A stretch of DNA of 64,000 nucleotides from Psammoneis japonica (lineage: Eukaryota). Of this stretch, positions 1 through 44,481 are shown in pieces (the first letter of the stretch is position 1; every line of letters starts with the position of its first letter). The DNA lies in NCBI GenBank assembly GCA_008632985.1, contig QPGO01000071.1, forward strand, positions 235,516 to 299,515, read 5' to 3'. The translations under genes and the position numbers were made by a program. The notes under the pieces are model-generated. The model made no database searches, was not told where the DNA came from, and worked only from the letters and a program-made list of their open reading frames with translations.

Positions 1-199
1 TGTTTGTTGTTGCACTTTGACCCACCATGAGATCATGGACGGGTCATCTGACATCACCACGCTCCACAGACACAGCTGTGTGACAACAACAACAGCTTAG
101 AAGCATGTGCCATGCTGCTCTGCAGAGTGTCAGAACAAATTTCTCATGCAGAAAAAGTTCTTGAAGTGACCATTCATTGCTGGTGTTTCATGTCTCATT

Positions 200-930: not shown

Positions 931-1744
931 GGCAATGATGACAGGCACCTTCTTCAAACTCTTCTTTTTGCAATGTGTTTTGAATGCAACATTTCAAATG
1001 TGACAGCAATGTCTGTCAGGGTGATGCAAACAAGCCAAGCCCTCCTGGCTTGAACTTTCAGCACAAACTTGCCCTCCAAAGAAGAAAGATGATCACCGGA
1101 AGGCGCAAGCACCAGCTCTCTTGCAGCATTTTCTGCTGTGAAGCAGCTGCAACTCTCACTTCCACACTGTTGCAACCAGGATGTGGACAAGTCTCCCATT
1201 CTGGAAAGACCAAATCTGGGGCAGTTGGGCTGGCATGCTGCCAGACCAGCCACAGAAGCAACTTCTTGGTGCAATCCAGAAATCAGCTTGCAACACAGGC
1301 TGTTTTTGATGTTTTGCGGGGATGCACCAAAACAATGACAGAGACAATGGGCACCCTGGCAGAGCATTGTGTGTTGTCGAGGAAAAACTCGTCCATGTCG
1401 AGGTGGCAATCTGCAGAGAAAAGGCCATCGGCGGAGAGAACTGGTGTTACTCACTGTACAACGATTTGGCACTGAGCACAGGACCAGCTCCTCAGTCACG
1501 GATTGATTCATCTTAAATTCGGAATCTTCATAGATGTATAAATGCGTATGTACAGATATTTGTGAATGAAAATTTGCTGCCAACACAAAAATCTGAAATA
1601 GGCTTCCTTAATCTTCTATTTTAAAAAATCATGCTCCACGCGTCATCGTCCATCGTCGCATCGTCCATCGTCCCCACACCCGATCGTCAAGATGACACGC
1701 AAAGTAACACAAATAGATGTAGATAGAGGCGGCTTGGCAACATA

Positions 1745-11267: not shown

Positions 11268-11900
11268 CGATGGATGAGAACTCGGCAATGACAAAATAAA
11301 TGCACAACCCAGTGATCAACACTTGCAGCTTCATTGTTGTCATTCAACACAGTTGAAGAAGACGGCATTCATCACTGCTGACACCACCTGCGCCACTCCA
11401 ACACTGCGTGCAATTGCCGTGCCACAAAGTGTGTCACGCATCTGGGCGTCGTGCGTGATCATTGAACATAGAGCCCTCTCTCTCGCCTCCTCCTTTTCCT
11501 CCTCAAGTGAGACCAAAAAAATCAAAGACTGACATCATGACGTTTTCTTGCCAAACAGCTCGAAATCTACTCAATCTACTTCTGCTTGCCTGAAAACCAC
11601 TCATTTGTCAGAAAACGAGCTCCTGGTCACAAGAAAATCCAGGTGGTCATGCGCGCTTTCACGCGAACAAGACCCCATGCAGAACAGGTTGTGTGTGCTT
11701 TTCATCATTCTTCGGAGTGACATGCAGACTGTGCTGAGATTTCCTGTAGAAAGCCAGCAGAAACAAGTAAAAAATCTGCTTCATTTTTCTCGTAAAATGG
11801 CCAAAATCTGCTTTACCCACCCGACATGATGTCAGTTTTTGAGTTTTTCGGTGGCACTTGTCCTCCTCTTTTTTTCATAAAATCGGAGCTACCTGCTGTG

Positions 11901-13889
11901 CACGTGACCGGACACATGCCGAATTTTTTGTTGGAACTCTCCCTGTGCCTGCCATCAAATTGCGTGACACTCTGGCAATGGACATCAACAACACATCTAT
12001 CTCGAAGACCAATCACCGCCTTGCCACAGAACACATTGCACACAACAACACGTCTTTGTGTGTTGCAAATGAGCGTTGTCAACTTCAGCTCCGTTGGGTC
12101 TCATGCAGAGCTGGCAAAAGCTCTTGGTGTGCCTGAAGGTGCACTGGACTTGGTGTCATTCAGCGAGTCCCCTTGCAAGGGCACGAGAGGCAACAGCAAT
12201 TGCATTCACCCGGCGGTCTGTCAAAATCAGGGACACTGTGTTGTTCATGGCCATTCTTGGCATCCTCGTTTGACCGACAGGAAAGGAAAGCCGAAAGAAG
12301 GGGCAATGCGGCCATCCACTTCTTGGGCCCGAGTTCCTGCCATGACACAACGGCCAATCCGCACCCGCCGCTTGCTGCTGTGAGAACCCAATCTGTGAGG
12401 GCATTGGGTGCTCTCATTTTGGTGTGTTTGTCTTCCTGCCGGCCTTGCAGACAAAAAGCTGTTCTTGCAAAAGATGGGAGTTTTAAACAAAACCATCAAA
12501 AAGTTGCTGGAGAATGGAGAATGCAGATGCGTTGCAACATGCCCCTTGGCACCTGCACCACCACAACCGGCATCGTGGAGAAGATGGGAGATGGAAGATT
12601 CAGGACCGTAAAGAATGTTGAGATGGAGACAAATTTGTGCATCTGCTCCCGCCTCCAATTTGTGATCTGCAAGAATGCATCAACAAAGTGAGGAACCCAT
12701 CACTCGGTCATGGAAGGAGCTGCGCTGCCACAGGCAATGCATTGCCGGGTCGGGCATCCAAGATGGCAGCCACACAAGCAGGAAATGGGCAGCCACTCCG
12801 TGCAATTAATGATGCCAAAAGTCAGGATGCAAAATGAACTCTGACAACCGGCAATGACAACCAACGGCACAAACGTCAGGTGGTTGACCCAGAAGAGCAT
12901 GAGCGCATCAAGGAGGAACTCCGGCTTGTAAAGGCAAAGCTTGAAAGTGCATTGACAAGGAACAAGGAGGCAGAAGCTGTGATGGAGATCAAGTGTGGTG
13001 AACTCCGAATTGCACTTGAACATCAGATGGGGAGAAAGAGAACTGTGAGAAGCAAGCCATCGAGAACATGGAGAATCTCATGGCGACAAAAGCAATTCTC
13101 TCTTGTGATGATCTAAAGCCTGGAGGCTCATTGGGGGGGTTTGTTGGGGACTGTGCCTGCTTTCCCACATTTAAATGCAACGAAGCCTTCCTGGAGTTTC
13201 TCAATTGTGGCGAAGCATGCAATCCTGGCGACGGCTTGTGTGAGAATGTCAGACGGTGCTCCAGGGTCGGCTGGGAAGAAAGGAGCGCAAATCGTGAGAG
13301 AGATGGAGCAGTGCGGGAGAGTGGCAATGAGTCAGATTTCTGTGTGCCGCTGGACGATTCAATGGGCAATGGTGAAAATTTTGAGAACTCAACCAGAAAG
13401 ATTTAAAATTATGACACAATCAACAGCTGGAACATCATCTGTGGAACGAGAGCTTTCTGATGATGTTGCTTTTATTTCCATGCCCCTGACAGATCCAAAT
13501 TCTCGTCCACATGTCCTGCCGACCCCGCACTTGCGCGCCACAAAATCCCAGTGCGTTTTGCTTGAGCAGGCGTTGCTTCAGCAAAAACTGGAATTACAGC
13601 ACAATCAATGGCAACAACATCATCTGCAGAACGAGAGCTTTCCAATGATGTCATTTTTATTTCCACACCCCTGACAGATCCGAATTCTCGTCCACACATC
13701 CTGCCGACCCCGCACTTGCTCACCACAAAATCCCAGTGCGCAATCGCACTTTTTTAGCATTCAATCGAAGCTCGACATTTCTGCATGGATGATTCAGTGT
13801 AAAACTTGCATGTGATCACATGTGCTCCACAAAACATTAAAAACACAGAAGAAACCAAAACTGATCGGTGTTCGGAGTGTCGGCACATG
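11901..13889 (+). mobile_element. Internally deleted DNA transposon with fragments resembling a transposase N-terminus
   Basis: Imperfect inverted ends cacgtgaccggacac..ccga (11901) and tcggagtgtcggcacatg (13872-13889); broken ORFs 12070-13400 (coiled coil, FPTFKCNEAFLEFLN..GDGLCEN); subterminal repeats. Confidence 0.45.
13416..13740 (+). repeat. Direct repeat of about 140 bp, period 185 (13416-13555 and 13601-13740)
   Basis: Shared aacatcatctg..gaacgagagctttc..ctgacagatc..aattctcgtccaca..ctgccgaccccgcacttgc..ccacaaaatcccagtgcg. Confidence 0.9.
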
Positions 13890-14474
13890 TTGTTTGTTGT
13901 TCTGCAGCGAGAGACAGACCCTGTGTGTCTGAGACAGTTGTCATTTTCATTGCATGAGGGGTGAACCTCGGTGGAGACGACACCGGAACGAAGCTGCGGG
14001 AAAGTCAGGTTATGAGCCAAAACCAGTGCTCTGATGCTGTCGTGAAACAAGACTGTGTCGTGCGCCCACGACCCCATGTTGGCGGAAACAGTCTGCATGC
14101 GGTTCACGTGAAAGACGGCAAGACCGTCGATTTTTTCAAGAGAACAAGACGATTTTGGCCCTCTAGTTCAAGTTTAAGCCTGGGACCAGATTTGATTCTT
14201 GGTGGGGCACTGCCACCACAATTGAGAGCCATTGAGCAGCCAGTTTGCATGATGGCAGTGACACAGAAATCTGATGGAAAGAAAACGCAAAAATGAGTGC
14301 GGCACGGTGCTGCATTTTTGTCCGCGTTTGGAATCCCTGTCGCAGGCTCCAGCAGCTTGCAACAGATGTGTCATGCTGCAGCATCTAAATGCATGTCATG
14401 ACTGATGAAAAGAAACAGTTTGCCATCCATTGCAAATGGAGCTGGTGCAGATTGCAGCAGTGTGCTGTTGCGAT

Positions 14475-15543
14475 TCAATCCCTGCGAAATTGCAACCCTG
14501 ACTGAACCTTGTCCGGCTTTGGCAATGGAACGTCTTTCGGACTCGGCTTCAGATTTCCATGCAAATCTTCTGTGCTAAAAAGACCTTCACCACACTCAAA
14601 TGACAATTGTGTCACAACAGTGCAGGCACGGAAACATTGGCTGTGCAGGTGGATGTCGTGACGAAAGCGTTGCGAAAGACACCCAAACAGCTTGAGACGA
14701 TCATTTGCCATCTCTTGTTTGTTGCGCACAGCCCCTCTCACCTTGGCGACAACTTTTGGCTCCACACAGTGAATCCCACTCGTGCTCTTTACATGCTCTG
14801 GGTCCTCCGCTCCGTAGCCATCATCGGCTTCGACCCTCTTGTTCTCTCCCAAATGGTGCTTGACAGAGTGACGGAAGATTTTGAGATCGGGCCAATCTCC
14901 ACAAGGAAACGGCCCATTGATCCACACAATGTCACCGGTCAAAATGCACACACAAACTTCACACCAGAGGCCAGCCTTTTTGAACTTGAAAGAATAAAAT
15001 GCCTTTGGGTTTTTCCCTTGGCTGGTCGTTTGACAATCGGCACAATCGACTGTCACCAAGCAGTCGAGGCCCTTGTCTCCAATGAGACGATTCGACCACA
15101 CAATCTGTGAAACCCGCAGAGGAAAAGGTTAGACTGAGCATCATTCACGTGACACAATCAGGCTGAAAACTCACCACTTCGAACTCCAAACACGAAACTC
15201 GGTCAATGAAGAACCAACTCCACTTGCGAAACATCTGTTCGTCAACTCCGCCACATTTGCAAGCAAGGTCTTCTTCGGTTTTGCATGTTTTCACCAAAAG
15301 CAACGCCCAGAGTAGATGAACTGGCTTTGCACATTTCTCATCTTTATCTGGCTCTGATTCTGGGTCGGGAACGCCAATCCTCAGCCCAATCCAGATGTCG
15401 ACACAGACAGCGGGCTCAACAGCAAAGTGAGACATCCACCGTCGGTTGAACACCACTTCGCTCCCAGTCCACGGGCAGTGGTTCATGATTTCACTGCCAA
15501 GTTCAATGAATGTGTCGTGGTTGGGACCCGGCATCTTCTTCAT
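14475..15543 (-). CDS. PIF/Harbinger-like DDE_Tnp_4-type transposase, 2 exons (intron 15174-15105); frame open but heavily substituted
   Basis: GTGAGT donor, CTAAC branch point, CAG acceptor; motifs VTVDCADC, IVWINGPFPCG.WPD, EADDGY and KQEMANDRLKLF. Confidence 0.8.
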
Positions 15544-15911
15544 GGGGGGTCCTGCCGCGGCATCGCCCTGTGGGCGTCATCGAGTCAACGACATCGTGGG
15601 GTGTCGTTTTCTCCGCAAAACTGGGCACGCCAAGATGGATGCAACATCAATGATTCTCACACAGTCTCAAATGTGTGTTTTTTGACGAGCCGTTAAAAGT
15701 CATGCGTTGATGCAGTGCGGTTGTACGACAACACAGGCAAACACTTTCGAACTGCTTCGCACAGCACCGTGATGTACGACGCCAAACAGCTGTGATTTGA
15801 GTTGGAGTTCTCAATCCATTGAGGTCACATGATAAAATGCAATGTTGCAGCTTGTGTGTGTGTGTGAAGTGTAATTTTTGCATCTGCAGATGTGTGATTT
15901 TTCAGAATCTG

Positions 15912-16016
15912 GAATTTTGACCGGACTTTTCGATTTTGACCGAAAAAAGAAAGTCCGGTCAAAATTCAAATTTTCGGTCAAAATGAGCCGAAAAAAAGAG
16001 GCGCATTTTCGGCTCA
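15912..16016. repeat. Cluster of three perfect inverted repeats (18, 14 and 11 bp)
   Basis: 15912-15929/15950-15967; 15933-15946/15971-15984; 15984-15994/16006-16016. Confidence 0.9.
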
Positions 16017-16468
16017 CTTCACACAACTCTTTGACAGTGTGTCATTGTGTTGTCCAACGGCCTTTCGCTTGAAGACAGGACAGATTGAAGTGACCGGAAA
16101 ATGAAAAAGACCCATTTGAAATTTCGGGCCGAATTCGATTTTTCCGGTCGGATTAATCGGATGTCCGTTGCTTGGCCAGAATTCTCTCAACAGACCGGAA
16201 ACTGGTCGTTGATGTCCAATGATCATGTTCAGTTTTAAAGCTGTCATTGTCAATGTTGCTGTCAAAGCTTGAATGTGATTTAATCATGTGTCTCTGCGTC
16301 ACCTGCACAACGAAAACGTGGCATGGTGCGCGCAGGCAGCCCAAACGAAGGCTCTCGATGGCTTTCGAAGAACAAAGCCGAGGCTCCATGCTCGCTCAGA
16401 AGCCAAGACGCAGACGCATCCACTCGCACTTCTGAGCTCTGATCATCGTTGTTTGCTTTCTCCTGTCA

Positions 16469-17736
16469 ATGGGACCGCGTTGGGGAACAAAGCAATGTCA
16501 CGAGTGCACGAAGCACTTTAACTTGTTCCATGCCAGCAAAGGCAAAGAGGGCTGGGACCCCAACAACACCGAGGAGGCACATGTCAAGTCCAAGACCGCG
16601 ATGTTGGATGTCATCCGTCCTTTTCTGCATCGCAACCTTGGTGGTCACAAAGATCACAAATTGTCTGACAAGGCTCTTGGTGGCTGCAAAAGAGCCTCCA
16701 GTGAGCATTTCGTTGAGTTGGCCATTGACGGAACCCGTCGAAGTGTGTGAATTGTCGCTTCACCCTGTTGGTTGTTGTTCATGCTCACATTTGCCACGAC
16801 TCACGATGATCTTTTTTTTCCTTGACAGAAGCACACCTGGCAGATGAGGAGAAAACAGGCGCACGGGCAACTCAAGCAACAGCAGGACAAGGGGTCACAC
16901 GGCTGCCGCAAGGAGGAGACGACGACGACAACTGCGACAGTGCCAACGACAGCAACTGTGAGTTTGAGGAGCAAGAAGACAAATCTGAGGAGGAGGCAGA
17001 TGATGAAGGCAACAGCGACGAGCAACAAGAACCCAGGAGCACTGGCAGTGTGAAGACCCCCAGTGCTGCACCAAGCAAGAAGTCCAAGACGAAGAGGACT
17101 CCCAAGAGCTCCTCAAAAAAGAAGTCGGGCGCAGAAGACTCTCGTCTCACAAGAGACATGCAGGAGAAGCTGAACATCTCCGGCTGCGCGCGCCATGTCC
17201 GAGACGATATTTTGCCATGCTCCCTTTGTGTCTGGACGGAGCCGGACTCGGGGATCAACCACGTCACGATCGAAATCGAGCTCCTTGGCACGATGGTGGC
17301 GCAGGACTGCAAGCCGAGCATCGCGCGCGATGGTGCAGAGGCAACTGTGGAGTGCAAGTTCCCAAATGGCGGGGACCTGATGGACCCAGCACACCTTTTG
17401 TTGACTCACAAGGATCACATTGATTTTTCAGACCAGCATCCGAAGCATTCAGCTGAGCAGAAAGCAATGAGGGCCTTGAAAGAGTTGAGTTTTGACAAAG
17501 AAGAAGACAGGAAGCTCCATGTTGAGCTTCCTTTCCCTTGCAATTTGAGTGGATTCTATGATCCACTCAAGGATGAGGATAACCAGCATCCAGCGGTCAA
17601 CCTGTGTCCGATTCATCCACGGGAGAGTGTCCCTGAAGGTGCGCCGAAAGCATCCATGAAGAAACTCGAGCTGACCCTGGAGAGCTTGGAAAAACCCAGG
17701 TGCACGCAAGAGGTTGTGTTGGCTAGTTTCTTCTAG
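16469..17736 (+). pseudogene. Transposon-associated second ORF, divergent from the transposase; probably 2 exons; acidic and Lys/Ser-rich tracts
   Basis: ORFs 16469-16750 and 16822-17736 lie inside the TpA-poor island and are almost Tyr-free; a two-ORF layout is typical of Harbinger elements, but no Myb motif was recognised. Confidence 0.45.
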
Positions 17737-24447: not shown

Positions 24448-25467
24448 ACTTCGATAGGTAGCCAACTTTTTGCCTCACACGTTTGTACTCCGAGCTAGCT
24501 ACTCTACTAGAGCTCCGAGAAAGCAAAACTCTGTGCAGTTTTCACGAGAGTTCTCAACCTACGTACAGTCAGTACGGACAAAGCTGTAGCTTCGACGGAC
24601 GTGGCGGGGTCGAATATCGGAAATTTGGCAAAAGACCGCGGGTTTAGATCTAAATAGAAGATGTCTTTTGATGTCAACTATGTTAAATAGAAATCGATAT
24701 TACTTCACTGTCATTTATTGAAACAAGATTGGAGTAGTTAATCAGTTAAGTAATCGATATTCTCAGTGATGGTCGACATTCCTGAACAAGAATTGTCTTA
24801 TGAAATGTGCGGTCAATGCCATGTCTTCTATATGTACTTCAGAGCAATGTTGATTAGGATATGGCGTTTAGGACGTATCTTGGTCATCGAGATCAAGGTC
24901 GCTTGGTATGCAGATACACGTGAAACTCTGCGCAGTGCCGTTTCTTTGACACTTCTGACCGCACGCGTCTTTGTCTGGCGAATGGCAAGATTTGTACAGT
25001 AGAGACCAGAGGAATGCTGCGACGCATCGCATGCGCTCGAGCTTGCTGAGCGCTGCAACTGTGGGGCCCCATTCCAACCACGTCCGTGACGCTGTTTGCG
25101 CTGTCATCGAAAACCTCCGCCTCCTCCTCAGTGGTCTGCACCAATCCTGCCACTCATGTCTTCCTCTTGAGCCCTCCAGGTTCCTCCCTGAGTGCCGTCC
25201 TCCCTCAAATGTCCCATGAAAGCTCACTTCCTTGTTGTCAAAGTTTCTGCCCCTCCAGCTTTCTTTGCCTGCCCCTGCCTTCTGGCACCTTTGTTGCCAA
25301 GGCTGGCCTCAGCAGCACCTCCTGACACAACAACAAGCTCTTGGCTGGGCCACAACAGGCCTGCCTCCAACCTCCAACAGCTCGTCCACCACCCGCTGCT
25401 GCCGCCGCCAACAATGCCGGCCTCTTTCTCTTCTCCCTTTTGCTTTTGACCATCTTGGCAGCACTGG

Positions 25468-26205
25468 CTGCCACTTCCCTGCTCTTTCTTTTTCAGCCAT
25501 CTTGCCACTTTTGGGCTGGTGCCCCCATGACTTTTCTGACTCCCGCTCTTCTTTCTCTGCCTGCCAAGCCCCCCCTCTCTCTCCTCTCGCTGCCACAACC
25601 CGCTCTTTGCTCAGACCAATGCCACCTGGAAAGAGACTTCCTCTGAGGGCCTTGGCTTTTCCCATGCCACCACTCCTCAGCCTCCCAGTTCCAGGCCTCC
25701 TGTCAGAGCTTTGATTGTGCTCTCTCTCCAGTCATCTGTCTTCCTGTGCAGCGTCTCCTCCTCCACAACTGTGCCCCGCCACCTGTCGTTCTCTTTGCCT
25801 TTGGCCCATGCTGGTGCCAGCCCCCTTTTTTGCCTCTGCCCCTGCTGCTCTTGGCTTCACTCACCTGCCATTCATTTCTCCTGTGCATGCATGCTGCCAA
25901 CACCTGGCTCTCCCTGTTCTCTGTTCAACCGCCATTGGAGCAGAGACAAGGGCAATGTGGTGTTGAGAGCTGCTTGCTCTGTTGAGCCATCTCAAACTTT
26001 GGTCTTTGTCCAAAGAGGCTTCTTTGTGCCCCTGTCTTGCCACCTTTCACACACCAAAATGGCAGCCAAAATTGAACAAGACATGCACTCCCACCTCCTG
26101 GGCAAGAAGAGCTTTTTGGCAAATGTGCTGCCTGCACCTGCAAGATTCACCACCACTGGTGCTGCTGCTTGTGCCACACAAATCAACAGATTTGTGCCAT
26201 GTGGA
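25468..26205 (+). repeat. Long direct repeat, copy A (LTR-like)
   Basis: Aligns with 30659-31665, e.g. gtggtgttgagagctgcttgctc and gagccatctcaaactttgg. Confidence 0.8.
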
Positions 26206-26299
26206 GTTCATGGAGAGTTGTTCCTTGCTTCAAAGTTTTTTCATGCAAAATGTGTTCCACCGTTGACTCAAAGTCTGGACCACCAAAATGTTTGAAATC

Positions 26300-29100
26300 A
26301 GGTGGATCAGCAACTCTCCAATGTTGTTGGTCAAGCGTGCCATCACATTGGCTGGGCCAATGAGCAAGAGATTTGGGCTCAGCAAAGGTGGCATTTGCAA
26401 GCCAGCATCTGTCATGGAAACTGAGCAGTGTAAAGGATCTGGCACAGTGGGGATGCTTTCCCACAAATGGTCTGGAGCCAAGCAACTTGGCAGTCCACAG
26501 CCTTGTTCTTGAGTGGCAAGAAATGTGTTTTCCAACGCACACCCCTCCTGAACAAATTGTTTTTGCACTCATTTTGCAGTGCTGGAAGGAAGTTAGGTGG
26601 CACTTCTTTCAGAACCCAAACAGTCAGTTCATCTGGTGGATGGCAGTTGGAAGCACTCAAGTTCCTGTGGCACGTTGCATTGCGTGACCCTTGTTGCAGC
26701 TTGGTCCTGCCATGCACGGTGGACAGATTTTCATTCCGAAGTCAACTCAAGTGAGCATGTTCTGGCACACTTCTTCACTCTCATTGAACAGACAACATGT
26801 TCATCTAAATGTTGCTTCTTCCTGTTGCTGGGCATGGCTCACAAACCCACTCCAATGCACTTCTTCTCATGTTGGAACTCCACCACACAGGCATGCAGTG
26901 GCAAACAGGTTGATGCCAGTCAAAGAGGGAGAGAGACAAGATGTTGGGTGTGGAGCCCAAGATCTCCTCCTCAGGTGCATGTCCTCCCACATCCAATGTG
27001 TTGGAAGCTGTCAAGTGTCAAATTGCACATGTCCACTGGGCACAGCAGGACCACAATTGTCGAGGTGCACATGTCTTGCGTGGAGTCCCATGGACTCTCT
27101 TCTTCAACTCACGAATGGATGCTTCTTGGTGGATCCTGCCATTCCTTGCAAACATCCTTCATCTGGCCATTGGTCATCTCCAGCACGCCATTCAAAGCAA
27201 GGGTCTGAGGTGCACCCGCATCATGAACAAATGACATGACGGTGTCTGGGTGGTCCTGCTTCCTCTTCCAAGGACAGAACCTGTTGCACCCTCTTCTGTT
27301 GGTGAATGTGCTGCCTCCCATTTCACCATGCATTGATTTGACCTTCAAAAACACTTGGTCTGAGCTGAAGCATCCCTTGACAGCAGGGAACTTAAGCCAA
27401 GGGGCTTTCTTCCACACTTTCCATTCAGAAGGTGCACATGTGTTGCAGACCCCTGCCTGGGTTGTCACTCCAAGTGTGTTCTTTGCAGCCATCACACCAA
27501 CATTCCACCTCTTGTCAGAGAGTGTTTTGGGTGTGAGACAGTCAATGCACAACTCAAGTTGACAGTGCATGGACCCATTTCTGTTCGGCACAGTCCGGGT
27601 GCACGTCTGGGTTGCACCCGTCAAGTGGCCTGTGTCCCTTGGCATCATTGTGGGAGACATTAACTTGGGCAACTGAGCAGTGACACAGCAAGTCATCATC
27701 AGTCTCCATGATTGTGTTGTTGTCATAATGCAAGGTTTGGTGAGATCGGATCAAAGCAATGCACCTGGTCATGTTCATCAAGGTTGCCAGTCCGTCAGAC
27801 TTGGCTGATCTTTGGTGCACACCAGCGCATGCCAACTCAACCTCCCTTTGCGCCAAAGCATCAGCAAGAGGCTCCCATTTGGCGGGAAGTGTCAACTCCA
27901 ATCAAGGAAGACCATCTGGGCCCCCCAGGGCAGGCTTGTGGGAGTCAAAAACCAAGACAACACCATGCAGGCACAATGGAGTCCTGACTTTTGAGTCAGG
28001 AAAGGGATGAAGTGTGTGCTGGCGGCATCAAACTGATGAGGAGTGTTGTGGACAGTCAGTCCATTTGCTCACAGTTGGTTGGGGCACAGCAATGAGTTCT
28101 TCATTCGGTCCCCAAAAAACATGGCCTCGTGGACTGATGGCAAGTGTGGCTGGCCACTGGTTGGGTCAACCCACACAGCAGCAGCTGTGAAAACAGGTGT
28201 GTCCTTAACAGGTTCACACTCTTTGGAGTGTGGATGTACAACAACGGTGTGGTTGGCACTTGAGCACACAACAAAGTTGGATCCGACATTGCAAGTGTCA
28301 GCACGCGAGTCCAGATCATTTGTCATGTCAGCATCTGGGTTTCCAGCAGATGACACCAAGACAAGCAAGTCTTTCAGGAATCAACTGGACAAATGCACAG
28401 TGCCAGCAGGTCCAGAGATGTTTGATCCCATGCCATTTGGTGCTGGCACAACTGTTCATTCCTCAGCCTGAGGTTTCCTGTGAGCAGCGGGCTTCTTGTC
28501 TGACTCATCCGAGTCCTTCTTTTTATCATCAGGTTTTGATTCTGGCTCAGCAATGGCCACATTCTTGATTGCACAAGTTGCTTCAGCTGTGCTCTCTTCT
28601 TTGGAGAAGACAGATCCCGCCTTGTGCTTCTTTGCGGCTTTCTTGGCATCTCATGGAGCTTCTTGACTTGCTTGCTCCTGTTCTGGGCTGTCCAGAGCCT
28701 TCCACTTGTCAAGGGGACAGCGACCTGCCCCAATCCGGGGCTGTCCTTCTTGGCTCCAGGTTTTGCCATGGCAGTTGTCAGGGCAACATCCGACAGCAGC
28801 AACATTGCAGGCATCTGCACTCCAACTCTTGGCATTTTCAACCAGAGTTTTGATTGCTGCTGGCATGTCTCAAAATTGGCAAGCTCAGTGGGGTCTCCAT
28901 CCACTGCACTCTTCCTGGTCTCCAACCTGGGGTCAGAAATGCTCTTGAGAAAGTCAGAGACCTTCTTGGTTTCAGCCACTGGCTTGTCCAATTCCAGGAG
29001 ATCATTGCAAGCTTTCTGATGGTGTTGAACACAATGGGGACTTGTGGCTCAGCTCATCACAACAGTGGCACATCACTGCCCCACTCTGACTTCCCTTTTG
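26300..29100 (-). pseudogene. Copia gag end, protease and integrase remnant; no RT/RNaseH seen
   Basis: KKVSDFLKSISDPRLET (gag); DLDSRADTC..NSLLCPNQL (aspartic protease, 28069-28368); RWNVGVMAAKNTLGVTTQAGV and SFVHDAGAPQTL (pre-integrase and integrase). Confidence 0.8.
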
Positions 29101-29109
29101 GGCATGGCT

Positions 29110-30242
29110 CTAGTCCTTTGAGTTGCTGGGCCTGTCATTCTCACTCTCATTGTTGGTCTTGTTCACACACTCATCATTCTTCCTCTTGTTGTGTTGTTTG
29201 AGAGGGTTGTTGTCCTTCAGATGGTTTGGTGGTGCATCCATTGCCTCATCAAGGGTTTTCAAATGGGTGTCCTTGCCCAGGCTGCAGTCTCTGGCAAAGC
29301 TCTTCTTTGAGCTCTTGCTTGTGGCAGCAGTGTCATTGCTGTTCTCTGTGAGTGGGAATGCTGTCCACTTCTCATGTGCTGTCTCTTGCAGCTCATCCTT
29401 GTCTGCCAGATCTGTGTTCTTGCACTCTTTGGTGTTGGCAACAAAGCCATCTGGCACCCTGCATTGTGTCTCCCATTCCTTCACTGGCAGCATCTTGCTG
29501 ACTCTTGAATCTTGACAGGTGGTCATTCAGTGGCTCACTCTCTTGTTGTCTCACATCCAGCATGTTCTGCAAAGACTTCTTGGCAAGTGTGTGGAATGGG
29601 TGTCAACCTCTCATTGAGTCAAGCACAAGTGCCTGTGTCAACTTTAAGTGGCTCAATCAGGCCATCCCCATTGTCTGTGCAATTGAGATCCCCTTGCACT
29701 CTCTTTTTCATCTGCTTTGTGCACCAATCATCACTCCATGATCTTGGTGAATGCAGCTGTCTTGTTCTCTTCAAACTGCCTCAATCTGTCATCACACTCA
29801 TGCAGCCCAACTTTCCACTGGTGCTCCAGAAGTTCTTTTTCTTCTCAATGTCTCTTTTCCAGGCTGCTCTGACATTCTGGATCATTCTCGACTGGAACAG
29901 GAGTTGTTGTGGCCTCACCTGAAGTGGGTCTCTTGGAGCCAAAATCTCACATTTAACATCCTCTGTGGATCTTGCTGGGTGCATGCCTTGAGTGTGATCC
30001 TTTTGCATGTGACAGATGATCTTCTCCTTGATGTGCTCACATGCAGCATGGCAACTGTTGTCTTTCAGTGATGAAAGATGAAACTTCATCTCAGGCTGAA
30101 AGTGCTTCTTGTTGTTGGTCTTCTTCAGGTTGGAAAACCCATGGCTTTTGTCACTTCTTCCACTGCAACCACATCTTTGGCCTTGGTTGTTTGACACACC
30201 ACTTCCTTTGCCACTCTCATCATGTGGGTCTTCAGGACTCAA
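29110..30242 (-). pseudogene. Gag-like remnant of a second copia family
   Basis: EMKFH..HAACEHIKEKIICHMQK and HLKTLDEAMDA resemble CoDi gag segments. Confidence 0.5.
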
Positions 30243-30658
30243 TTGTCCGCAAGTGTGACAGCATCTTCAAGCACCAAATGCAGTGCCAGCAATTCTTTTT
30301 GGAGCAAATGTTGTTGAGTCAGCAAGTCAATGTTGCCAAAAAGGAGTCCTGTGAGATTTCCTGTGCCATCCATTGCACTTGTTGCCTTGGTTGCTTGCAG
30401 TGACTGTGGGTTGCCAAGAAGCTCTCAAGCAAACTTCAAACTTGCAATGCAGCAGGTGTCTGTTGATGCCAGTGACAAAATTGCACAAACCAAATGACTT
30501 GCTCCAAAGGATGAGATGAGCTGACAGGCAAGAGAGATTGGCAACAATGACATCTTGATCACAAATGAGAAAATGAATCTTCAACATCAAGAGCAACAGT
30601 GTCTTTTCTTCAATGCACCTGGGCTCTTCACTTTTCCCATCTGCAGCATGTTCCAACA

Positions 30659-31665
30659 CTGCCACTTCCCCACTCTTTCTTTTTCTGCCTCCTTGCCCTC
30701 CACCACCCCTTCCTCCATCCTGCCCAAGCCACACCTTGGGCTGGTGCCCCTCTGACTTTTCTGACTCCTGCCATTCCTTTGCCACCCGCCAAACCTTCCC
30801 CTCTCTCTCTCTCCCACCAAACTCCTTGCTCAGGCCAACACCACATGGAAGCAGACTTCCACTGAGTGCCTTGGCTCTTCCCATGCTGCTGCTCCTTTGC
30901 CTCCCAGCCCCAGGCCTCCCAGAGCCTCACTGCTCTCTCCAGTCATCTGTCTTCCTGCCAGCCTTTCCTCCTCCACAACTTTGCTCCTGCTGTCTCCTCT
31001 TCTTTTCTCCATTGGCCCACACTGCCAGAGCCCCCTTTTTTCTTCTCCTCTGCCCCTGCTGATCTCCACTTCACCAACCTGCCCTCCATTTCTCCCACAC
31101 ACGCACACTGCCAAGAATGCCTGGCTCTCCTTGTTCTCTGTTCAACCATCAGAGTGGGGAGGCGCAGTGTGGTGTTGAGAGCTGCTTGCTCCATTGAGCC
31201 ATCTCAAACTTTGGCCTCTGCCCAAAGACACTTTTTTGTGCCCCTTTCTTGCCACCTTTTACACACACAAAAAGAGCAGCCCAAATTGAACAAGAGATGC
31301 ACTCCCACCCTCCTGGGCAAGAAGAACTTTTTGGCAAATTTGCTGCCTGTCAGTGACATGGAAAATTGGACACAAAGACAAGTTGGCAACTTTTTTGTTT
31401 TTCACGTGTGGGAGAAGCACAAATGAAAATTTTTCTTCTTTTGTCAGTGCACTTCAATCTGACCTGCTGCCTCTGACATGTGCACACGAGCAACAATGGC
31501 CAGACCTCATTGCCCATGTCATTTGCACACAAGTGCAAGCTGTCATTTGCTTCAATTGACCACAAATCATTTGTGGCTGGTTTTCCAAGTTGCTGGCCTG
31601 CACTTGCAAGATTCACCACTGCCGCTGCTGTTTGTGCCACACAAATCATTGGATTTGCACCATGT
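30659..31665 (+). repeat. Long direct repeat, copy B (LTR-like), interrupted by a 245-bp insertion
   Basis: Colinear with copy A on both sides of 31351-31595. Confidence 0.8.
31351..31595. mobile_element. MITE-like insertion with imperfect TIRs of about 26 bp and a 6-bp target-site duplication
   Basis: Absent from copy A; left TIR cagtgacatggaaaattggacacaaa vs reverse complement of the right end cagcaacttggaaaaccagccacaaa (19/26); flanks gcctgt / gcctgc. Confidence 0.7.
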
Positions 31666-33686
31666 GGTGGGGCTGTCAAAGTTGAAGGTTCCCAGCATGC
31701 AGCGCTGGTGTGCAAGGACTGGCTGAATGTGCAGGGTGCAGTTTTGAGTTTTTGGGGCTTGTTTTTTGCCAAATGCACAAAAATGTGCTGGTGTGTAGAA
31801 ACACACCAGGGTTCTGCATGGCATCACACCAAAATGTTGTGGCACATCTTGACAAGCTGGCTGTTGCAACAGAAGTGGCTGGAAACAAGTGACAGCCACA
31901 AAACTCACTGTTGCACACTTTTGCAGCCATCAGCACCCACTCAAGCAAGTGATGGCACACTTGCTGCTCAGTTGCTCAAACACATGGGCCTCAAGGGTGT
32001 CATGCAAGATCTCATGCTGTGAGTTCTCAAGATTCCTTTCAGACAAGAGAACTTGAGACTTCAGCCAATGCTGCCAAATGCACAGCAAGCTTCAGACAAG
32101 CAAACCTGAGAGGGTGCAATGGGCAATGAATTTTTGTGCACAGTTGTGTGTTGAAACTTGAAGTGCCAACAGCATCAGCATTGGAGGGAGGAGGCTGTGA
32201 TGCCGTCAATCAGTGCTGCATCTGTGCAACATGCATGCAGCCAGCTTCAGTGCATTGTTGAGCACAAAACCTCATCTCAACCAATGTGTTTGGCTGGTCC
32301 TTGGTGGTGTGTGCAGCTTGCTCAAGATGCCCATCATGCTGGTTGACAAATGTCTGCCAGTTTGTGGAAAACAAACAATCTTGCAAAAAATGAGAGTGTC
32401 AGCTCCCCCAGTTTTCCACACAAACAGGTCCAGTCAGATCAGAAGATTCTTCTCTTACACCTGAGCTCTTCACACTGTGCAAAGAACATGGGCACATCTT
32501 GCCAAAACAGTCAGATGCAGTGGGAAAAAAAAACAGAAAACAGCAGCTCATCAAAGAGGCAACCACAAAAAAGCCATGTGCAGAGTTGAGATTTTGCCTT
32601 TTTGTCACCAGCATCCTCAAAGCAATGAGAACAACAACAACACTGGCCAGCACTTCAGAGTGAACAGATCCAAGGGAAAAAGCAACAAAAATTGAGGGAA
32701 AGTCTGTCAGATTTGCTCGCACAAAGTGTGCAGCAATGGAAGAAAGGGAAAAGGCAAAGCTTTTGCTTTTGTTGTTGGCAGCACACCAGCTCTTTTTTCT
32801 GACAAGCCAAGGGCCAGTGGCTGAAAGTTGCCCCCCCCCCCCCCCTGCACACTTTTCTTGGCACAAGGAGGAGAGAGAGGCACAGCTCACTGGCCTCATG
32901 TTGAAAGTGGTGCAAAGTTAACAACATGGCTTGAAATTTGAACCAAAGTTGGAACCTTGCCACCACATGCAGCAGAGCACCCCACACATCTGCAAGCTGC
33001 CAGAGACATGAGCAAGGGCACCACCCAGCTGGGACAATGTCACTGCAGGAGAGGTGTGGCCTCAGCATGTGGCCATGCTGCTCTGTGCTGCTGCTGTTGT
33101 GTTGGTGTCTCCAAAGATGCAAAATGTGGCACAGCCCCCTCTCTTTTTTTCTTCTTCATTTTCTTGTTTTTTCTTTTTCATTTTCAGTTGCTCCAAACAC
33201 CAACAAGCTGTCCCAATGTTGCAGCATGGCCCCTGAAGGTCTGCAAGCAAAAAGCTGAGTCTGCTCCTGTTGGGCCACCAGTTGTTGTCTCCTCTCTCCC
33301 TTTTTTCTCCAGTGCCAGTGTGTGCATTCGCAGAGAAACCGGTCTGTCCTTTTGGGACGGAAGGCCAAATCTCCGTAAATTGTCTGGGACATGCGAAAAG
33401 GGATGTGGAGACTTGAAAAAAATGTTCGGGACACCGCTGAGACAAGATCGACGCGATTGACAGGCTGCCGGTAGATCACAGGCTGAGCCTCAGCTCGTCT
33501 GTCGTCCGTTTCGCCACCTGCAACGGGAGACTGACAGGAGACACAACGAACTGACTCACAAAAAGCATCATTACCATGCCGTTGAGGATTATTCGAGGGT
33601 GCAAAATAATAAGTTACTGTCCAACCTGAAACCTGTTCAAAAACAACATAAGGCAGGGAGTGGTTGACTGTGGAAAAGTAACAAGA

Positions 33687-34957: not shown

Positions 34958-35049
34958 GAAGTTTTTAAGATGAAAGTTAAAAGTAGCTCTCTATGGTAGG
35001 ATTCTATTTACTGCTGGTGCGTGTTGCCCAGGGGCATAAAAATACACAC

Positions 35050-37800
35050 AGACGGGATGAGCCATCGCGTGACACAAAAAAGGAGGGGGGTCGCCAAGCT
35101 CTGCATCTGATGCCGCAACACAACGAGACACGACGCGACGGCGAAGAGACTATGCCACAGGCAAGGAAAATGCTGCACCCTTCAAAGGGAACCATGGCTT
35201 GTCATCATTGTCAATGAAATTTCGCTGCTGGCTTTGAGCACAAGATGGCTGCACTGTCAAGCACAGGCGAGAAAACCAAACATGACATTTGCAAGGAAAC
35301 ACAACACCAATTCTCTTTTGATCCAGAGAAAGGTTCTCTCAACAAATGGTTGTTGATGCTCAATTGGCACAAAACTTGCCGGGCATCAAGAGGAGCTTGC
35401 CTTGTGCCATGCGCAGAAGTGATGTGCAGCACTGCAAACATGACTCCCCATGTGTGCTTCTTGACCACCTCAGGGGCATGCACAACATGCACAGTCACAC
35501 ACTGGGTTGTCAATCCATTCTGTTTTAACTGATTGCTCAGAGCATGCTTGACAAATGGACACACCAAATGCTCTTGTCATTCTAAAACATTGGCTTCTTG
35601 AAAGGTTGTCAAGAGGGCTGAGTCACAAACCAACCAAATCAGCTTCTTAGAGAGAAATGGCTGAGGCCAGCACACATTGAAGTTCAGCTCATCTTCTGAT
35701 GAAGGCAAGAGAATGCATTTCTCAAAGGAGAGCAACAACTCTTGATCTCCATGATCCATGGGGGGCAAAACACATTGAACAGCAGCAGGTGTTCTTTGAT
35801 TTTGAGCACAGAACCTTGTCCCTGACCAAGAGCCCAAAAAACTCTTTTCTGGCATGTTTCCACAGCATTGTTGCACCTCTTGGGCACTGTTTTCTTTAAT
35901 CTCTTTACCTGATCATGTGCCAATGACTCCAACACCAGCAGAAGATGAGCCACCTGTGCATGCGCCATCTGGCTGAGGCACACACATTGCTGCTTCAAGG
36001 TCTGGGGGTTCTTTGCAGGAACTTCATTTTGCTGACCCTTGTTTTTTGCCACAGCACAGACCCAAGCATCTCTTCCACTGGCAAAGAGCACTTTCTCTCT
36101 ACTTTCTACACTGAAGCTGAGTGCAAGAGTTTTGTCAATGCCTTGTGGTTGTTCACAAGCTTCTTTTTGCCGCCCTTTCTCATGCTGATTGTCTGCTGAT
36201 TCAGCAAATTTTCTGTGTGCAAGTTTTGGCACAAACTCCACATGCTCCAGCAACAATGTCTGCTGATGACTGCTCAGCCAAATCTCTGCACTGCTTTTGT
36301 CCATGCCCATTCACACTCAATGATCTTCATTTTCCTGCTCCTGTTTGCCAACAAAGTTTTTCACTGTGAGTGGTGAAAGTGCACTGCCTTGGTTGCAGCA
36401 CTCATGAGTGTGAGCTTGAGTCATCCTTTGGCATCATTTGATTGTCACTCATTTGCTGGAAGTGTGTCAGCATTTCTGCACAAGATCTGGTGTTGCTTCT
36501 GTGCATGATGAACTTTTCTTCTGATGATTGACTTGTCATGACATCAAAGCTTTCCATTTCACACACCCCAGTTCTGAACAAACCTTCTCTTGTTTGCTGG
36601 CACACATCAAGCTCTCTGCTCAATGTGGCAAACTTTCTGCTGCTGCCACAGTGATCAAAGGTGAGAAATTGAGTCTCTCTTTGATGAGGGCAAGTGGTTC
36701 AGAAGAAGCATTTCTGTCTCAGCTCTGATGCAGTTTGTGAGCCAAGTTCTGCTGGGTGCAACTGTCTTTTGCTGTTGTGGCATTGCTGCCACCATTCCAG
36801 CAAAAAAAAAGCAACAAATCCAGCAATGTGGTTTCTCACAATTCCCAGTTGCCTCAGGTGGTCTCCATTGCTGCAAGGTGGTGCCGACCTTGGCCAGTTC
36901 TCTCCTTGCATTTTTCTCCCACACACCAGTGCACTGGAAGCATGGGTTGTCAACCAACCATGCTGGCATTGCTGGCCAATGGCACACTGGCGCTTGGAAC
37001 CAGATTGGAGTTTCTTGAAACTGAGCACAAGACAGGAACAGCACTGCACGTGTGTTTGATGTGGGGACCTCTCTCACACCAGCCAGTGACGCACAACACT
37101 GAGAGAAAGGTCTCACAAAGACTCAACCCAGCAGCACTTGTGCAGGCTTGCCCCTGCAGCAAGAGACACAAAAATGCACCCTGCTCAGAAAAGCATCAGA
37201 GTCTGGTGATGCCATTTTTCTCCTGAACAGCTGCTGAGCCTGCTGCTGGGTGTTCTCAGCCACACCACAAAAACTGCAGCGAGAGTGCCACCCTTTGCCT
37301 CAGGAGTGGGGGCATCATGGCCATGCACTGCCTGGCTGGGTCAAGCTTGCAGCAGGTTTCTGTGGATTGCACAGCATGTTTCAGCATGAAAAAGGCAAAA
37401 TGTGGCTGTCACAATGTCAACAGTAAACTGCAGAGGGTGAGAAGGCAGTGAGGGGGCTTTGTGAACAACCCTTCCCCCTCTTTGGTGTGAAGACAAAAGG
37501 TGGCGCACAAAAAAAGATGAAGGCGCACATCATCATCTCAGTCTCACCCAAATCTTTAAAAAGCAATGCATTGTGAGAATGTTGCAGGTGTTTGCTGTTT
37601 GTCATTTGCTTGTGGTGTTTTGTGTTTGGGAGTGGAGCTGGCTTTTGCAGAGCACTTTTGTTTCAAGGGAAAGCAAAAAGGAGCAAAGGGGGGAGGGAAC
37701 AAAAAAAAGGAGCTCCGCTTCGTCAGTGAGGACAGCTCTGTGACTGACGCGAGGAACCTCTGCTTGCGACCCCAAACATTGTTGGGAACTTCGTGTGGCA
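35050..37800. mobile_element. TpA/CpG-depleted repeat island of unrecognised family
   Basis: Same dinucleotide signature as the recognisable transposon islands; no diagnostic protein motif seen. Confidence 0.55.
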
Positions 37801-38099
37801 TGGTGCTAGTCGTTTTGTGATTACAGCCGGAGCAGCGGACAACGACGCATCATGTCGAGTGCTGGCATTTTGCGACGCACGGACAAACCGATAGATGGAC
37901 GGACGGACAGCCTGCAACGCCGATAGATACATGTATGTTTTTGTGACTCTTTTTGTTTCCTCGCAATGACATTATTTTGCCGCACCATACCGGCACAGAA
38001 AGGCTACAACTATAAGCTCTATTGGCATGGCCGTTGAAGACGATACGCAACACGACTATAACAGTGACGACGACGACGACGAGGACGCAATGATGGATC

Positions 38100-42411: not shown

Positions 42412-42699
42412 GTCGCGATCTGCATCAAGCAATGGAAGGATATAGCTCTGGTAGTCTACTCAAAACACCGGTAGGAGTATGATTGAAGCTGTTGTCTACC
42501 TTCGACATCGGGTTCTGCCGTGAAAGACAGTGGAAGAATAAAGACGGCGGCTCTATCGATCATCGTTGCGTTATGAGAGTTTGCAGAGATCCATCCGTTC
42601 AGATAACGGTCATCGGCAACAGAGCAAACAAATCCGTTCAGATAACGGTCAACGGGGACGCAGGCTTGCATTCTTTGCGCTTTTTGATTATCACGATAC

Positions 42700-44330
42700 G
42701 ACAAGGTGGATCAACTGACCGGCTTGTCACGCACCGGAAGAATGGGCCGGCCGCCGGATCGTCGATTTGCGGCGACCGGGCAGACCTGTCCACAGCTCAT
42801 TGATGGACAGGTTGTGGCGACACTGGTGGCAGTGGCTGCCGCAACGACGTCGAAGTTTGCCATTGATCTGCGTCTTTTGGTCAATCTGAAAAAAAAGGGC
42901 AGGAAGATTCGTTTGGCGAGAACCAGATTGTTTCATCCACAATGTCTTGCAAGTGCAATCCAATGCAAAGCAAGTGCATCTGCAGGCTCAGTCAGCTTGT
43001 CAGTGGCCTGACCCAGATGTCAGCTTCACAAAGGCGCAGCACCAGCAAACAATGGATGGAGCACGTGCTCAATGACTCGAGAGTTGTTGGCTGCTGTCTC
43101 TGCCACCCAAGCCATTTGTTGCCATTGGTGGTGTCCTTGACCTGGCTGTCAATGTCATGTGAAGCCTTGTCATCCATGAGAGAAAACAGCCAAGGCCAGC
43201 CCAGCAGCAGAGTTTGCACTTTCATGGCAACAGAGAGCACACATTGACATGGCGGCGGTGCAAAAGGGGGCTGATCAACAGGAGTTTCATGAGGTCATTT
43301 TCCCGCACAGCCAGGCTGCTGCTGAATGGGTCAAATCAGAAAGACAACCCAATGATCTGCTTGGTCGACTGAAGAATGAGTTGGTTTCAGCAGGGGATTG
43401 ACACCTGGAAGCCTTTGCAGATCCTTCAAAGTTTGCGAACCATGTGGTGAAGCAAGTGTGGATCAGTTTGTGGTGAACATGGTCAAGAAGATTCACAGCC
43501 CAGAAGGTGCTGCCAAAGTTGTCAGGGGGGCACCATGAGTTGCCCTTGCCACCGGGGGCAGGCCATCAAGTTGGCCAGCTTCAGTGCCGCTTCAGTCATT
43601 GTGCAAGATGCAGATGATTGGCAAATGCTGGAGATGGTGCCAATTGAGAACATCAAGTGCAAGAACCTCAACATGGTTGAACACACCCAGGCATGCTGGA
43701 GAGGACTTTGTGACAGATTCAAGGCCATGACCAAGCAGCTCACCCAATGGTGGCTGGGAGAGACCGCCATGAATTGCCTGCACATTTTGGATCTGTCCAA
43801 CAAGATCACGAAACTGCTGGTGGCCAGATGGATCAGCACGGGGCATGCCAGGTGCACCACTGGTGCTGCAAACTGACAAGGCCAGTTGTCTGTGTCTGGC
43901 CTGTGCTGTGGCAACCAACGGGCTGTTGGCACACGATGCTCTGGAGGCAATGTCTCGACACACCAAATGCAGGCCTGTTGCTGTGCATGTGTTGAATGGG
44001 GCAGTCCAGCCCCAGCTCCTGGACAATGGCAGCACAGGACAAAAAGGGTGACGGATCGCCAGCAACACAACAGTGTGGGCGGATGGCTCGTTGGAGGCAG
44101 ATGCAGGCATGGCCAACACAGATGGGAAGCAGCACCATGGCGTTGAGGACAACAACTCTTAGAGAGACTTGCAGTCCAGGTGCTGAAGCAAAAAAATGAC
44201 AATTGAAGTGAAATGTTGGAAATCTCGGGACAGTCCTGTGTCCTGTCCCCACAGAAATTTCCAGACGTGGCAGTCAGTCCTTCTCCAGTCACGCAGCCAA
44301 TTGGGGGCCGTTGTGGCTTTTTACAACATT
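42700..44330. mobile_element. TpA-depleted repeat island with possible degenerate terminal inverted repeats
   Basis: Essentially no TA from 42700 to about 44320; weak inverted similarity between 42730-42791 and 44226-44295. Confidence 0.6.
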
Positions 44331-44481
44331 GGTGACTCACTCCTATCCTCCTCCGAAATGTGGGATCGAGCTATTCATATGGTGTCCGGATTGGTGTTCC
44401 AAGCTGATTGTGTAAACTTCCCGACAAAGTGTGAAGAGCACTCCACAGGTGCGTATGAACAGCCATGCTAGGTTTTCGACC

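Follow-up and report, generated by a model that had tools for sequence, protein, structure and literature searches.

The 64,000-nucleotide stretch of the Psammoneis japonica genome analysed here (the window: contig QPGO01000071.1 of assembly GCA_008632985.1, positions 235,516 to 299,515 of the forward strand) is made up of ordinary DNA with genes, interspersed with six islands in which the dinucleotide 5'-TA-3' (TpA) has almost disappeared. The same signature is present in a copia-type long terminal repeat (LTR) retroelement, in Harbinger transposons, in an element with terminal inverted repeats (TIRs) and in an element that bears an exonuclease. We consider it likely that transposons, and only these, undergo a hypermutation of TpA to CpA or TpG at the level of chromosomal DNA, alongside the decay of CpG. 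A preliminary description of the window had pointed out that conserved transposon tyrosines are read as cysteine or histidine; this observation is confirmed here, and the interpretation given to it is supported with the corrections set out below. The islands and their elements are as follows (window positions; dinucleotide values are observed/expected ratios, o/e).

1..1447: TpA-depleted island 1, cut by the window edge; TA at 98 and 201 only, dense from 1448 (1-1500: TA 0.04, CpG 0.16, CA 1.71, TG 1.84)
~61-750, minus strand: Harbinger-like copy B, in island 1; tblastn of the homologues P0155, P0171 and P0200 maps to 750-61
6135..17723: TpA-depleted island 2, several decayed elements with mild CpG loss (6101-17800: TA 0.12, CpG 0.66, CA 1.48, TG 1.59; 85 TA)
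7691..9211, plus strand: WRN-like 3'-5' exonuclease (DEDDy) remnant in island 2 with one in-frame stop (Pfam DNA_pol_A_exo1 and WRN chains)
14541..15627, minus strand: PIF/Harbinger-type transposase remnant, copy A (homologue search, tblastn extent)
25001..33571: TpA-depleted island 3, around the copia-type element (24901-33600: TA 0.05, CpG 0.18, CA 1.77, TG 1.71; 24 TA)
26844..28356, minus strand: Ty1/copia-lineage polyprotein remnant, N-terminal conserved domain and integrase-like core (HMMER, tblastn)
28069..28368, minus strand: conserved N-terminal domain of the copia-type element, at the place of the protease in copia polyproteins (homologue columns)
25511..26134, plus strand: LTR-like direct repeat arm, paired with 30736-31349 (self-blast)
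30736..31349, plus strand: LTR-like direct repeat arm, paired with 25511-26134 (self-blast)
35152..37806: TpA-depleted island 4 (35001-37900: TA 0.09, CpG 0.24, CA 1.77, TG 1.73); no Pfam family in its open reading frames (ORFs)
42698..44159: TpA-depleted island 5, between two host genes, with the longest TA-free run of the window (1,463 bp; 42601-44400: TA 0.09, CpG 0.45); no Pfam family
60186..61972: TpA-depleted island 6, a small element with 83-nt TIRs (60186-60268 and 61787-61869)

Summed over the islands (27,511 of 64,000 bp), TA occurs 112 times (o/e 0.07), compared with 1,486 times (o/e 0.59) in the remaining 36,489 bp. The respective values are 0.41 versus 0.98 for CpG, 1.64 versus 1.18 for CA, 1.68 versus 1.17 for TG and 50.1% versus 47.4% for GC content (0.48 over the whole window). 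A rough balance drawn from the totals sets ∼ 1,600 lost TA and CG against ∼ 1,660 gained CA and TG. When the window is divided into 2-kb bins, TpA o/e is 0.02-0.19 in islands and 0.53-0.77 elsewhere, with CpA/TpG reaching 1.4-2.1 in islands; four mixed bins (TpA o/e 0.25-0.47) straddle island edges.

Islands were called as segments with TA o/e < 0.30 in 400-bp windows and their boundaries were set from the positions of TA dinucleotides. This is stricter than the 1-kb-window criterion of a preprint on the alga Bigelowiella natans (Mettrop et al., bioRxiv 10.64898/2026.01.13.699255); all six islands (1.4-11.6 kb each, by our own 400-bp segment calls) fall within both cut-offs of that work, whereas the adjoining host genes and intergenic DNA fall outside them. 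The limits at the element ends are sharp. TA-free runs of 1,463 bp (42697-44160), 1,431 bp (25000-26431), 1,317, 1,306 and 1,247 bp occur in the islands, while the DNA flanking such runs carries one TA per 20-30 bp, and the changeover takes place within tens of bases. The 12 non-coding host stretches beside islands have TA o/e values of 0.38-1.01, with 11 of them at 0.53 or above; thus, loss of TpA is not a general property of unconstrained DNA here.

The degree of TpA loss relative to CpG loss differs from island to island. In island 3 both are severe (TA 0.05, CpG 0.18), but island 2 has a TpA o/e of 0.12 despite a CpG o/e of 0.66. It follows that CpG decay did not bring about the TpA loss as a side effect and that the two processes are separable. 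Every NTAN context is depleted, although unequally: the ratio of island to host frequency is 0.00 for ATAC/GTAT, 0.025 for ATAT, 0.06 for GTAC, 0.11 for CTAG and 0.37 for TTAA. ATAC/GTAT is gone from the islands, with none left as opposed to 217 in host DNA, and the TA that remains in islands is found mainly in TTAA, CTAA/TTAG and GTAA/TTAC. CpG loss has its own context dependence, being strongest at ACGT (ratio 0.25) and weakest at CCGG (0.93), with GCGC nearly spared. No consistent asymmetry of CA versus TG between the strands, relative to gene orientation, was seen in the window.

The shift is also visible in the reading frames. In the six frames of 25000-33500 there are 372 TGA triplets, as against 20 TAA and 7 TAG, and because TAA and TAG are nearly absent, many long ORFs persist in the islands (219 of at least 75 aa). 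Tyrosine makes up 9 of 2,374 residues (0.4%) in island ORFs versus 130 of 4,175 (3.1%) in host ORFs. The 553-aa ORF at 6081-7739, for which the preliminary description had given only two tyrosines, indeed contains two, beside 18 cysteines and 22 histidines.

We propose that two context-specific transition processes would have hit mobile-element DNA and spared the neighbouring host DNA. The main one would convert 5'-TA-3' to TG or CA (on either strand, an A:T>G:C change at the A of TpA) and would have run nearly to completion; the second would be the ordinary decay of CpG to TpG or CpA. The large excess of CpA and TpG follows because both processes end in these dinucleotides. At the protein level the first would turn Tyr (TAY) into Cys or His, Ile (ATA) into Thr or Met, Leu (CTA) into Pro and Val (GTA) into Ala, and the second would turn Arg (CGN) into Cys, His, Trp, Gln or a TGA stop. 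With TAA and TAG lost as stops, dead elements would retain long open frames. What the data show directly is the dinucleotide shift, its direction, its abrupt ends at element borders and its absence from the genes and intergenic DNA of the host. We infer that the TpA process acts on chromosomal DNA after insertion, as a genome defence linked to silencing that resembles the repeat-induced point mutation (RIP) of fungi but has the opposite chemistry. Our leading candidate for that chemistry, taken from the B. natans preprint, is deamination of adenine to inosine at TpA; a mispairing modified thymine such as 5-hydroxymethyluracil could give the same outcome.

The direction of the change was assessed in a blind test, by reverting each possible transition in silico and scoring a success when the new residue was at least 4-fold commoner in the homologue column than the present one. 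For the copia-type element, reversions to TA succeeded at 20 of 129 sites and reversions to CG at 17 of 111, compared with 12 of 330 for other transitions (phmmer profile; P = 4e-5 and 7e-5). With the tblastn profile the counts at non-synonymous sites were 31/210, 31/186 and 18/526, respectively (P = 2e-7 and 1.4e-8). When the reverted residue was required to equal that of the nearest relative, P0152 (55% identity), the result was 16/60 for TA, 21/67 for CG and 11/95 for the others (P = 0.028 and 0.0025). The sulfotransferase gene of the host, used as a control, showed no effect (TA 3/131, CG 3/107, other 18/564; P = 0.78 for TA). Together with the cysteines and histidines now standing at invariant tyrosine positions, these data bear out the direction TAY to TGY or CAY that had been suggested from the letters. 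Individual TpA-type sites include Y>C, Y>H and the changes anticipated for the companion codons, all of which were seen: ATA>ACA/ATG (I>T/M), GTA>GCA (V>A) and CTA>CCA (L>P), as well as T|ACT>T|GCT across a codon boundary. At the sites of the last two, 115 of 128 homologues have L and 115 of 128 have T, respectively. CpG-type sites include CGA>TGA, CGC>TGC and CGG>TGG, where R stands in 110 of 129, 65 of 73 and 65 of 72 homologues, respectively.

The copia-type element of island 3 can be read as a frame of 806 codons that is interrupted by 15 TGA and one TAA. It contains no tyrosine, versus a median of 2.9% in 151 homologues, and has 5.0% Cys, 3.1% Arg and 2.0% Ile where the homologues have close to 1.5%, 6.5% and 5.7%. 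Weighted by the tyrosine content of the homologue columns, its residues are 18% C, 12% H and 0% Y; six homologues treated in the same way as controls gave 36-46% Y, with C at no more than 4% and H at no more than 6% wherever listed. None of the eight tyrosines of P0152 that align to the window is kept (C, C, C, H, H, S, W, L). A HMMER search of 1.84 billion representative sequences returned 1,234 matches at E ≤ 1e-3 (best 4.6e-56). Nine homologues were scanned for the reverse transcriptase domain RVT_2, which scored above the cut-off in four long ones and just below it in a fifth; its presence in the long homologues assigns the element to the Ty1/copia lineage. The reverse transcriptase part itself is absent from the window, where tblastn covers homologue residues 3-548 only. 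Placed by homology only, the copy in the window is a truncated relative of Ty1/copia.

Five environmental relatives of this element (P0030, P0032, P0039, P0047 and P0052) have only 0.6-1.5% Arg, with Cys, His and Trp raised. Four of them retain ∼ 2-3% Tyr and P0047 has 0.6%. These look like cases of CpG decay without loss of TpA, which suggests that the two processes need not co-occur in other organisms.

All six peptide strings on which the original observation was built were located where it had placed them:

28201-28245, minus strand: VVVHPHSKECEPVKD, peptide string of the copia-type domain
14955-14972, minus strand: GLWCEV, Harbinger copy A
420-437, minus strand: GLWHEA, Harbinger copy B
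284-298, minus strand: ADDGC, Harbinger copy B
14814-14828, minus strand: ADDGY, Harbinger copy A
8642-8659, plus strand: CAALDA, exonuclease motif

In the copia-type domain, three Cys or His residues stand at positions with Tyr in many homologues. At the column of H141 (CAC) 83 of 123 homologues have F and 38 have Y, at C145 (TGT) 60 of 121 have Y and 27 have L, and at H169 (CAC) 64 of 128 have Y. At H139, on the other hand, the homologues have S (34), H (30) or Y (15), so His is natural there. The designation of this domain as a protease is tentative: Pfam matched no family to ORF 28072-28380, and the homologues carry the motif D-S-H-A-D-T rather than D-S/T-G.

The ORF of Harbinger copy A (14478-15128, minus strand) has 194 homologues at E ≤ 1e-3 (best 2.8e-64, 58% identity), many of which carry a precomputed DDE_Tnp_4 annotation (PF13359) and one of which is labelled Coscinodiscus; Pfam found no family in the window ORF itself at E ≤ 0.01. 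Residues were counted in an alignment of 120 homologues. The consensus GLRYEV, cited in the preliminary description, proved correct, with R in 115 of 118 homologues and Y in 118 of 119. At these two positions W (TGG) and C (TGT) stand in copy A, and W and H in copy B. Likewise the ADDGY motif, whose Y is present in 120 of 120 homologues, is retained with a TAC codon in copy A but ends in C in copy B, as the proposed pairing of the two strings implied. TA o/e is 0.10 in copy A (14478-15128) and 0.00 in copy B.

This family is not natively free of TA, since the matched parts of metagenome relatives (top 40 of 80 loci) have a median TA o/e of 0.51 (range 0.13-0.80). The patterns of the metagenome scan contained tyrosine (RVEADDGY, RYE), and fully mutated relatives were excluded by this design; among the 80 loci so found, TA o/e drops below 0.15 within some 500-bp window in four and below 0.10 in two. 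One metagenome contig of 1,067 bp (L002; match 464-1024) holds a relative with 53% identity and an open transposase frame. It has five TA in 1,067 bp (o/e 0.08) with a CpG o/e of 0.82, and two of the five are invariant Tyr codons. Partial hypermutation of a copy would explain this, or else a live, TA-avoiding element; in both cases it belongs to another organism. The contig, the one basis for this point and of unknown origin, hints that live elements under TpA pressure keep TA only where it is needed.

The exonuclease of island 2 tells the same story at a catalytic residue. Pfam DNA_pol_A_exo1 scores 22.8 and 23.9 bits (cut-off 23.6), and the WRN exonuclease chains 2e6l and 2fbt match with E-values of 3e-6 and 4e-6. 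Both chains align YaatDA over CaalDA of the window, in agreement with the earlier reading of CAALDA as a mutated YAAxDA. The catalytic Tyr of the DEDDy Exo III motif (Y-x3-D) is thus Cys in the window, and an in-frame stop splits the domain. With these lesions, the remnant is a dead copy. It lies within a large unclassified element on the plus strand (6075-11000), in which a 555-aa ORF without a Pfam family precedes the exonuclease.

Repeat arms give an indication of when the changes took place. The two LTR-like arms flank the copia-type coding remnant (self-blast identity 78.8% over 638 columns) and differ at 132 of 654 aligned positions. CA opposite TG is the largest class of adjacent double-transition mismatches (13 of 23; binomial P = 6e-7); five pairs of CG versus CA/TG also occur, and none involves TA. 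In island 6 the 83-nt TIRs (87% complementary) differ by two CA/TG doubles and several CG/CA sites, and the left repeat starts 6 bp after the last dense TA (60180). CA and TG at the same site in two arms suggest that one ancestral palindromic dinucleotide was resolved independently in each, as would be expected if the change came after insertion. To the left of the TIR element (60120-60185) lies a low-complexity stretch rich in CTAG/TAG. On its right (61870-62157) the DNA is TA-poor for ∼ 100-300 bp and rich in CTGG/CCAG/CAG. This right-hand DNA may have started out like the left-hand stretch and undergone TA>TG/CA, in which case the process would have spread beyond the element.

Several observations weigh against a TpA process confined to transposons and acting on the chromosome. 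Islands 4 and 5 contain nothing recognizable as a transposon by Pfam scan of their ORFs. The reversion test is borderline for Harbinger copy A, both with the phmmer profile (TA 4/68, CG 6/67, other 3/231; P = 0.049 and 0.005) and with tblastn (4/68, 7/68 and 4/233; P = 0.08 and 0.0035), and null for the very decayed copy B (10/167, 14/155 and 24/349; P = 0.85 and 0.46). A change in the reverse direction exists in one codon, CGT (R), where 98 of 109 homologues have H. Lost tyrosines do not always turn up as Cys or His; roughly one in two of the columns that have lost Tyr shows a different residue: the 15 columns of the three copies with Tyr in at least 50% of homologues now hold 2 Y, 4 C, 2 H, 3 L and one each of S, W, F and E. 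Moreover, CpG decay, which is at work in these islands too, makes Cys or His from Arg CGY (for instance R>C at a column with R in 65 of 73 homologues), so neither residue alone proves a lost Tyr. The same ambiguity affects the arms, because an ancestral CG yields the same alternation of CA and TG as an ancestral TA, and arm evidence alone cannot separate the two processes. The LTR-like pair, with the reverse transcriptase missing, is not proven to belong to one element. Finally, no new mutation was observed, and the TpA process is deduced from what would be its end states.

Loss of TpA might instead have occurred off the chromosome, before or during transposition, for instance by editing of the RNA, the cDNA or the excised DNA of an element; copies would then have been mutated by the time they inserted. 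The depletion does end at element ends, and L002 is TA-poor with its Tyr motifs kept. The copy number of the copia-type core also speaks for such a course. Contigs of run X1 (word depth ∼ 60, records up to 315 kb) cover 26.7-29.3 kb at ∼ 20-fold depth when matches of at least 80% likeness are counted, and these ∼ 20 copies may share the depleted state; part of the depletion could accordingly predate amplification, which is a further point against change after insertion. The places at which the X1 contigs differ are mostly transitions (A>G 163, G>A 176, C>T 135, T>C 192; 21-43 for each class of transversion), and the copy variants are mixed, with many TG/CG, few TA/TG and three CA/TG doubles among 40 of 919 rows. 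A word-indexed search for paralogues in the genome with the integrase-like ORF gave one match among 17 candidates and recovered no paralogue protein. We nevertheless regard an off-chromosome origin as unlikely. Depletion is just as strong in DNA transposons, which pass through no RNA stage, as in the retroelement, so editing of an RNA intermediate is no explanation; in both the LTR-like and the TIR pair, there are sites where one arm has CA and the other TG; and copies with stops and lost catalytic residues would be unable to keep transposing autonomously.

Selection by the elements themselves, which would avoid TpA as viruses avoid CpG, is very unlikely in our judgement. L002, where the few remaining TA include invariant Tyr codons of an open transposase frame, is what such avoidance would look like. 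However, the window has lost Tyr and Arg at invariant positions as well as the Tyr of the exonuclease, and its copia-type frame is broken by 16 stops, which is decay and not adaptive recoding; avoidance would, in addition, presuppose a TpA-directed attack.

It is still less probable that old neutral DNA drifts to low TpA throughout this genome and that the islands are merely old. Host DNA is itself moderately TpA-poor (o/e 0.59), but the non-coding host stretches near islands stay, with a single value of 0.38, at 0.53-1.01, and the composition changes within tens of bases.

Scarcely credible, finally, is an artefact in which modified bases of silenced DNA are systematically miscalled in sequencing or assembly: TpA and CpG, the dinucleotides concerned, are the two pyrimidine-purine steps that are palindromic and as such typical modification sites, and long-read basecallers can err at methylated motifs, but X1 contigs (records 1-8) agree with the islands at 0-2 differences, although X1 may be the source data of the assembly, and a systematic miscall would not give CA in one arm and TG in the other at homologous sites.

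The DNA between the islands is that of a diatom-like host. The sulfotransferase has no near match, the best being 53% identical, and its named relatives, at 38-43% identity, are all diatoms (Amphora coffeaeformis, Stephanocyclus meneghinianus, a CCRYP model of Cyclotella cryptica style and an MMETSP 'Thalas...' entry). The window has long intron-free host ORFs, in keeping with a diatom. An inverted host-like pair (52036-53357 and 49906-48588; 67.7% identical over 1,361 columns) has normal TA and probably represents diverged paralogous genes. At 18003-19336 the summed depth of X1 contigs is 283-507, compared with ∼ 60 for unique DNA, and TA is normal (o/e 0.65 over 17724-19642); this is either a repeat without hypermutation or reflects contigs of other organisms. 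A host ORF of ∼ 490 aa (44485-45960, minus strand) has no Pfam family, and its nearest Atlas clusters are unnamed or NERD-domain (0.87-0.91), as a lead only. An Rfam scan of the window matched no family.

Hypermutation of this kind has practical consequences. Domain searches miss these elements, and loss of TAA and TAG leaves many long spurious ORFs to be annotated. Among 222 ORFs submitted to Pfam (150 and 55 from islands, 17 more), the sole island match was the borderline exonuclease domain and no transposon domain was found. Dating of elements by the divergence of their LTRs will give ages that are too high. We know of no natural activity that makes A:T>G:C changes at one specific dinucleotide in chromosomal DNA as a genome defence; such an editor, if it exists, would be of interest to the base-editing field.

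RIP in ascomycete fungi consists of C>T changes at CpA. It resembles the process proposed here in that dinucleotide-specific transitions strike repeated mobile DNA, end at its borders and kill its genes. As the cause of the islands it is excluded, however: RIP creates TpA from CpA, so that TpA and AT content go up, whereas in the window TpA is destroyed, CpA and TpG are in excess and GC is near 50% (50.1% in islands versus 47.4% outside). Deamination of 5-methylcytosine accounts for part of the pattern, namely the CpG o/e of 0.41 versus 0.98, the gain of TpG and CpA and the conversion of Arg codons to TGA, Trp, Cys, His and Gln, but it was rejected as the source of TpA loss, since it cannot remove TpA. 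Hyper-editing by ADAR and editing by APOBEC3 in animals share with the window a deaminase-type signature on repeats; these enzymes act on RNA or on pre-integration cDNA and on retroelements only, whereas in the window DNA transposons are equally hit and the arms appear to have diverged after insertion.

The closest parallel is B. natans. Mutation-accumulation lines of this alga (Mettrop et al., bioRxiv 10.64898/2026.01.13.699255) acquired 231 mutations in two integrated viral regions, a giant virus and a virophage; of these, 230 were A>G or T>C, all 230 at TpA, and the mutation rate of the regions was ∼ 6e-7 per site per generation. As given in the same preprint, the genome has 324 TpA-poor coding sequences, enriched for DDE and reverse transcriptase domains, and 124 TpA-poor clusters; an ADAT2-like adenine deaminase is proposed, and ADAR is noted to favour a 5' U beside the edited A. 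This preprint is the sole precedent for TpA hypermutation that we found in the full-text literature, which gave nothing for diatoms, and a term search of its main text found no mention of diatoms or stramenopiles. By term search, PMC4504042 and PMC9258296 have no bearing on the subject.

Both systems show A:T>G:C changes at TpA that yield TpG and CpA, confinement to foreign or mobile DNA and clusters poor in TpA and rich in CpA and TpG. The window represents the same TpA-specific signature in a second lineage, near saturation, on transposons and with CpG decay. If TpA-directed hypermutation operates in a second lineage, it would be a wider genome defence of protists and not the curiosity of one alga, and comparative searches for the enzyme become possible among genes that are common to affected lineages and absent from unaffected diatoms. 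We speculate further, with somewhat less than even confidence, that diatoms, like B. natans, run a chromatin-targeted DNA editor that turns the adenine of 5'-TA-3' in double-stranded transposon DNA into a base read as guanine, preferring ATAT and ATAC most and TTAA least. Such an editor would be an ancient defence, common to stramenopiles, alveolates and Rhizaria, that mirrors RIP, and live elements would answer it by purging TA except in essential Tyr codons, as L002 suggests. The differences from the case described in the preprint are nonetheless clear. B. natans is a chlorarachniophyte, that is a rhizarian, whereas the named relatives of a host gene in the window are diatoms, on a different branch of the supergroup. 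The targets are giant-virus and virophage inserts there, and those identified here are transposons. Strong CpG decay accompanies the loss of TpA in the window, unlike in B. natans, and the rate was measured in the B. natans lines alone. Lastly, the depletion of TpA is near saturation in the window, with an o/e of 0.07, compared with 0.45 in the nucleocytoplasmic large DNA virus region of B. natans.

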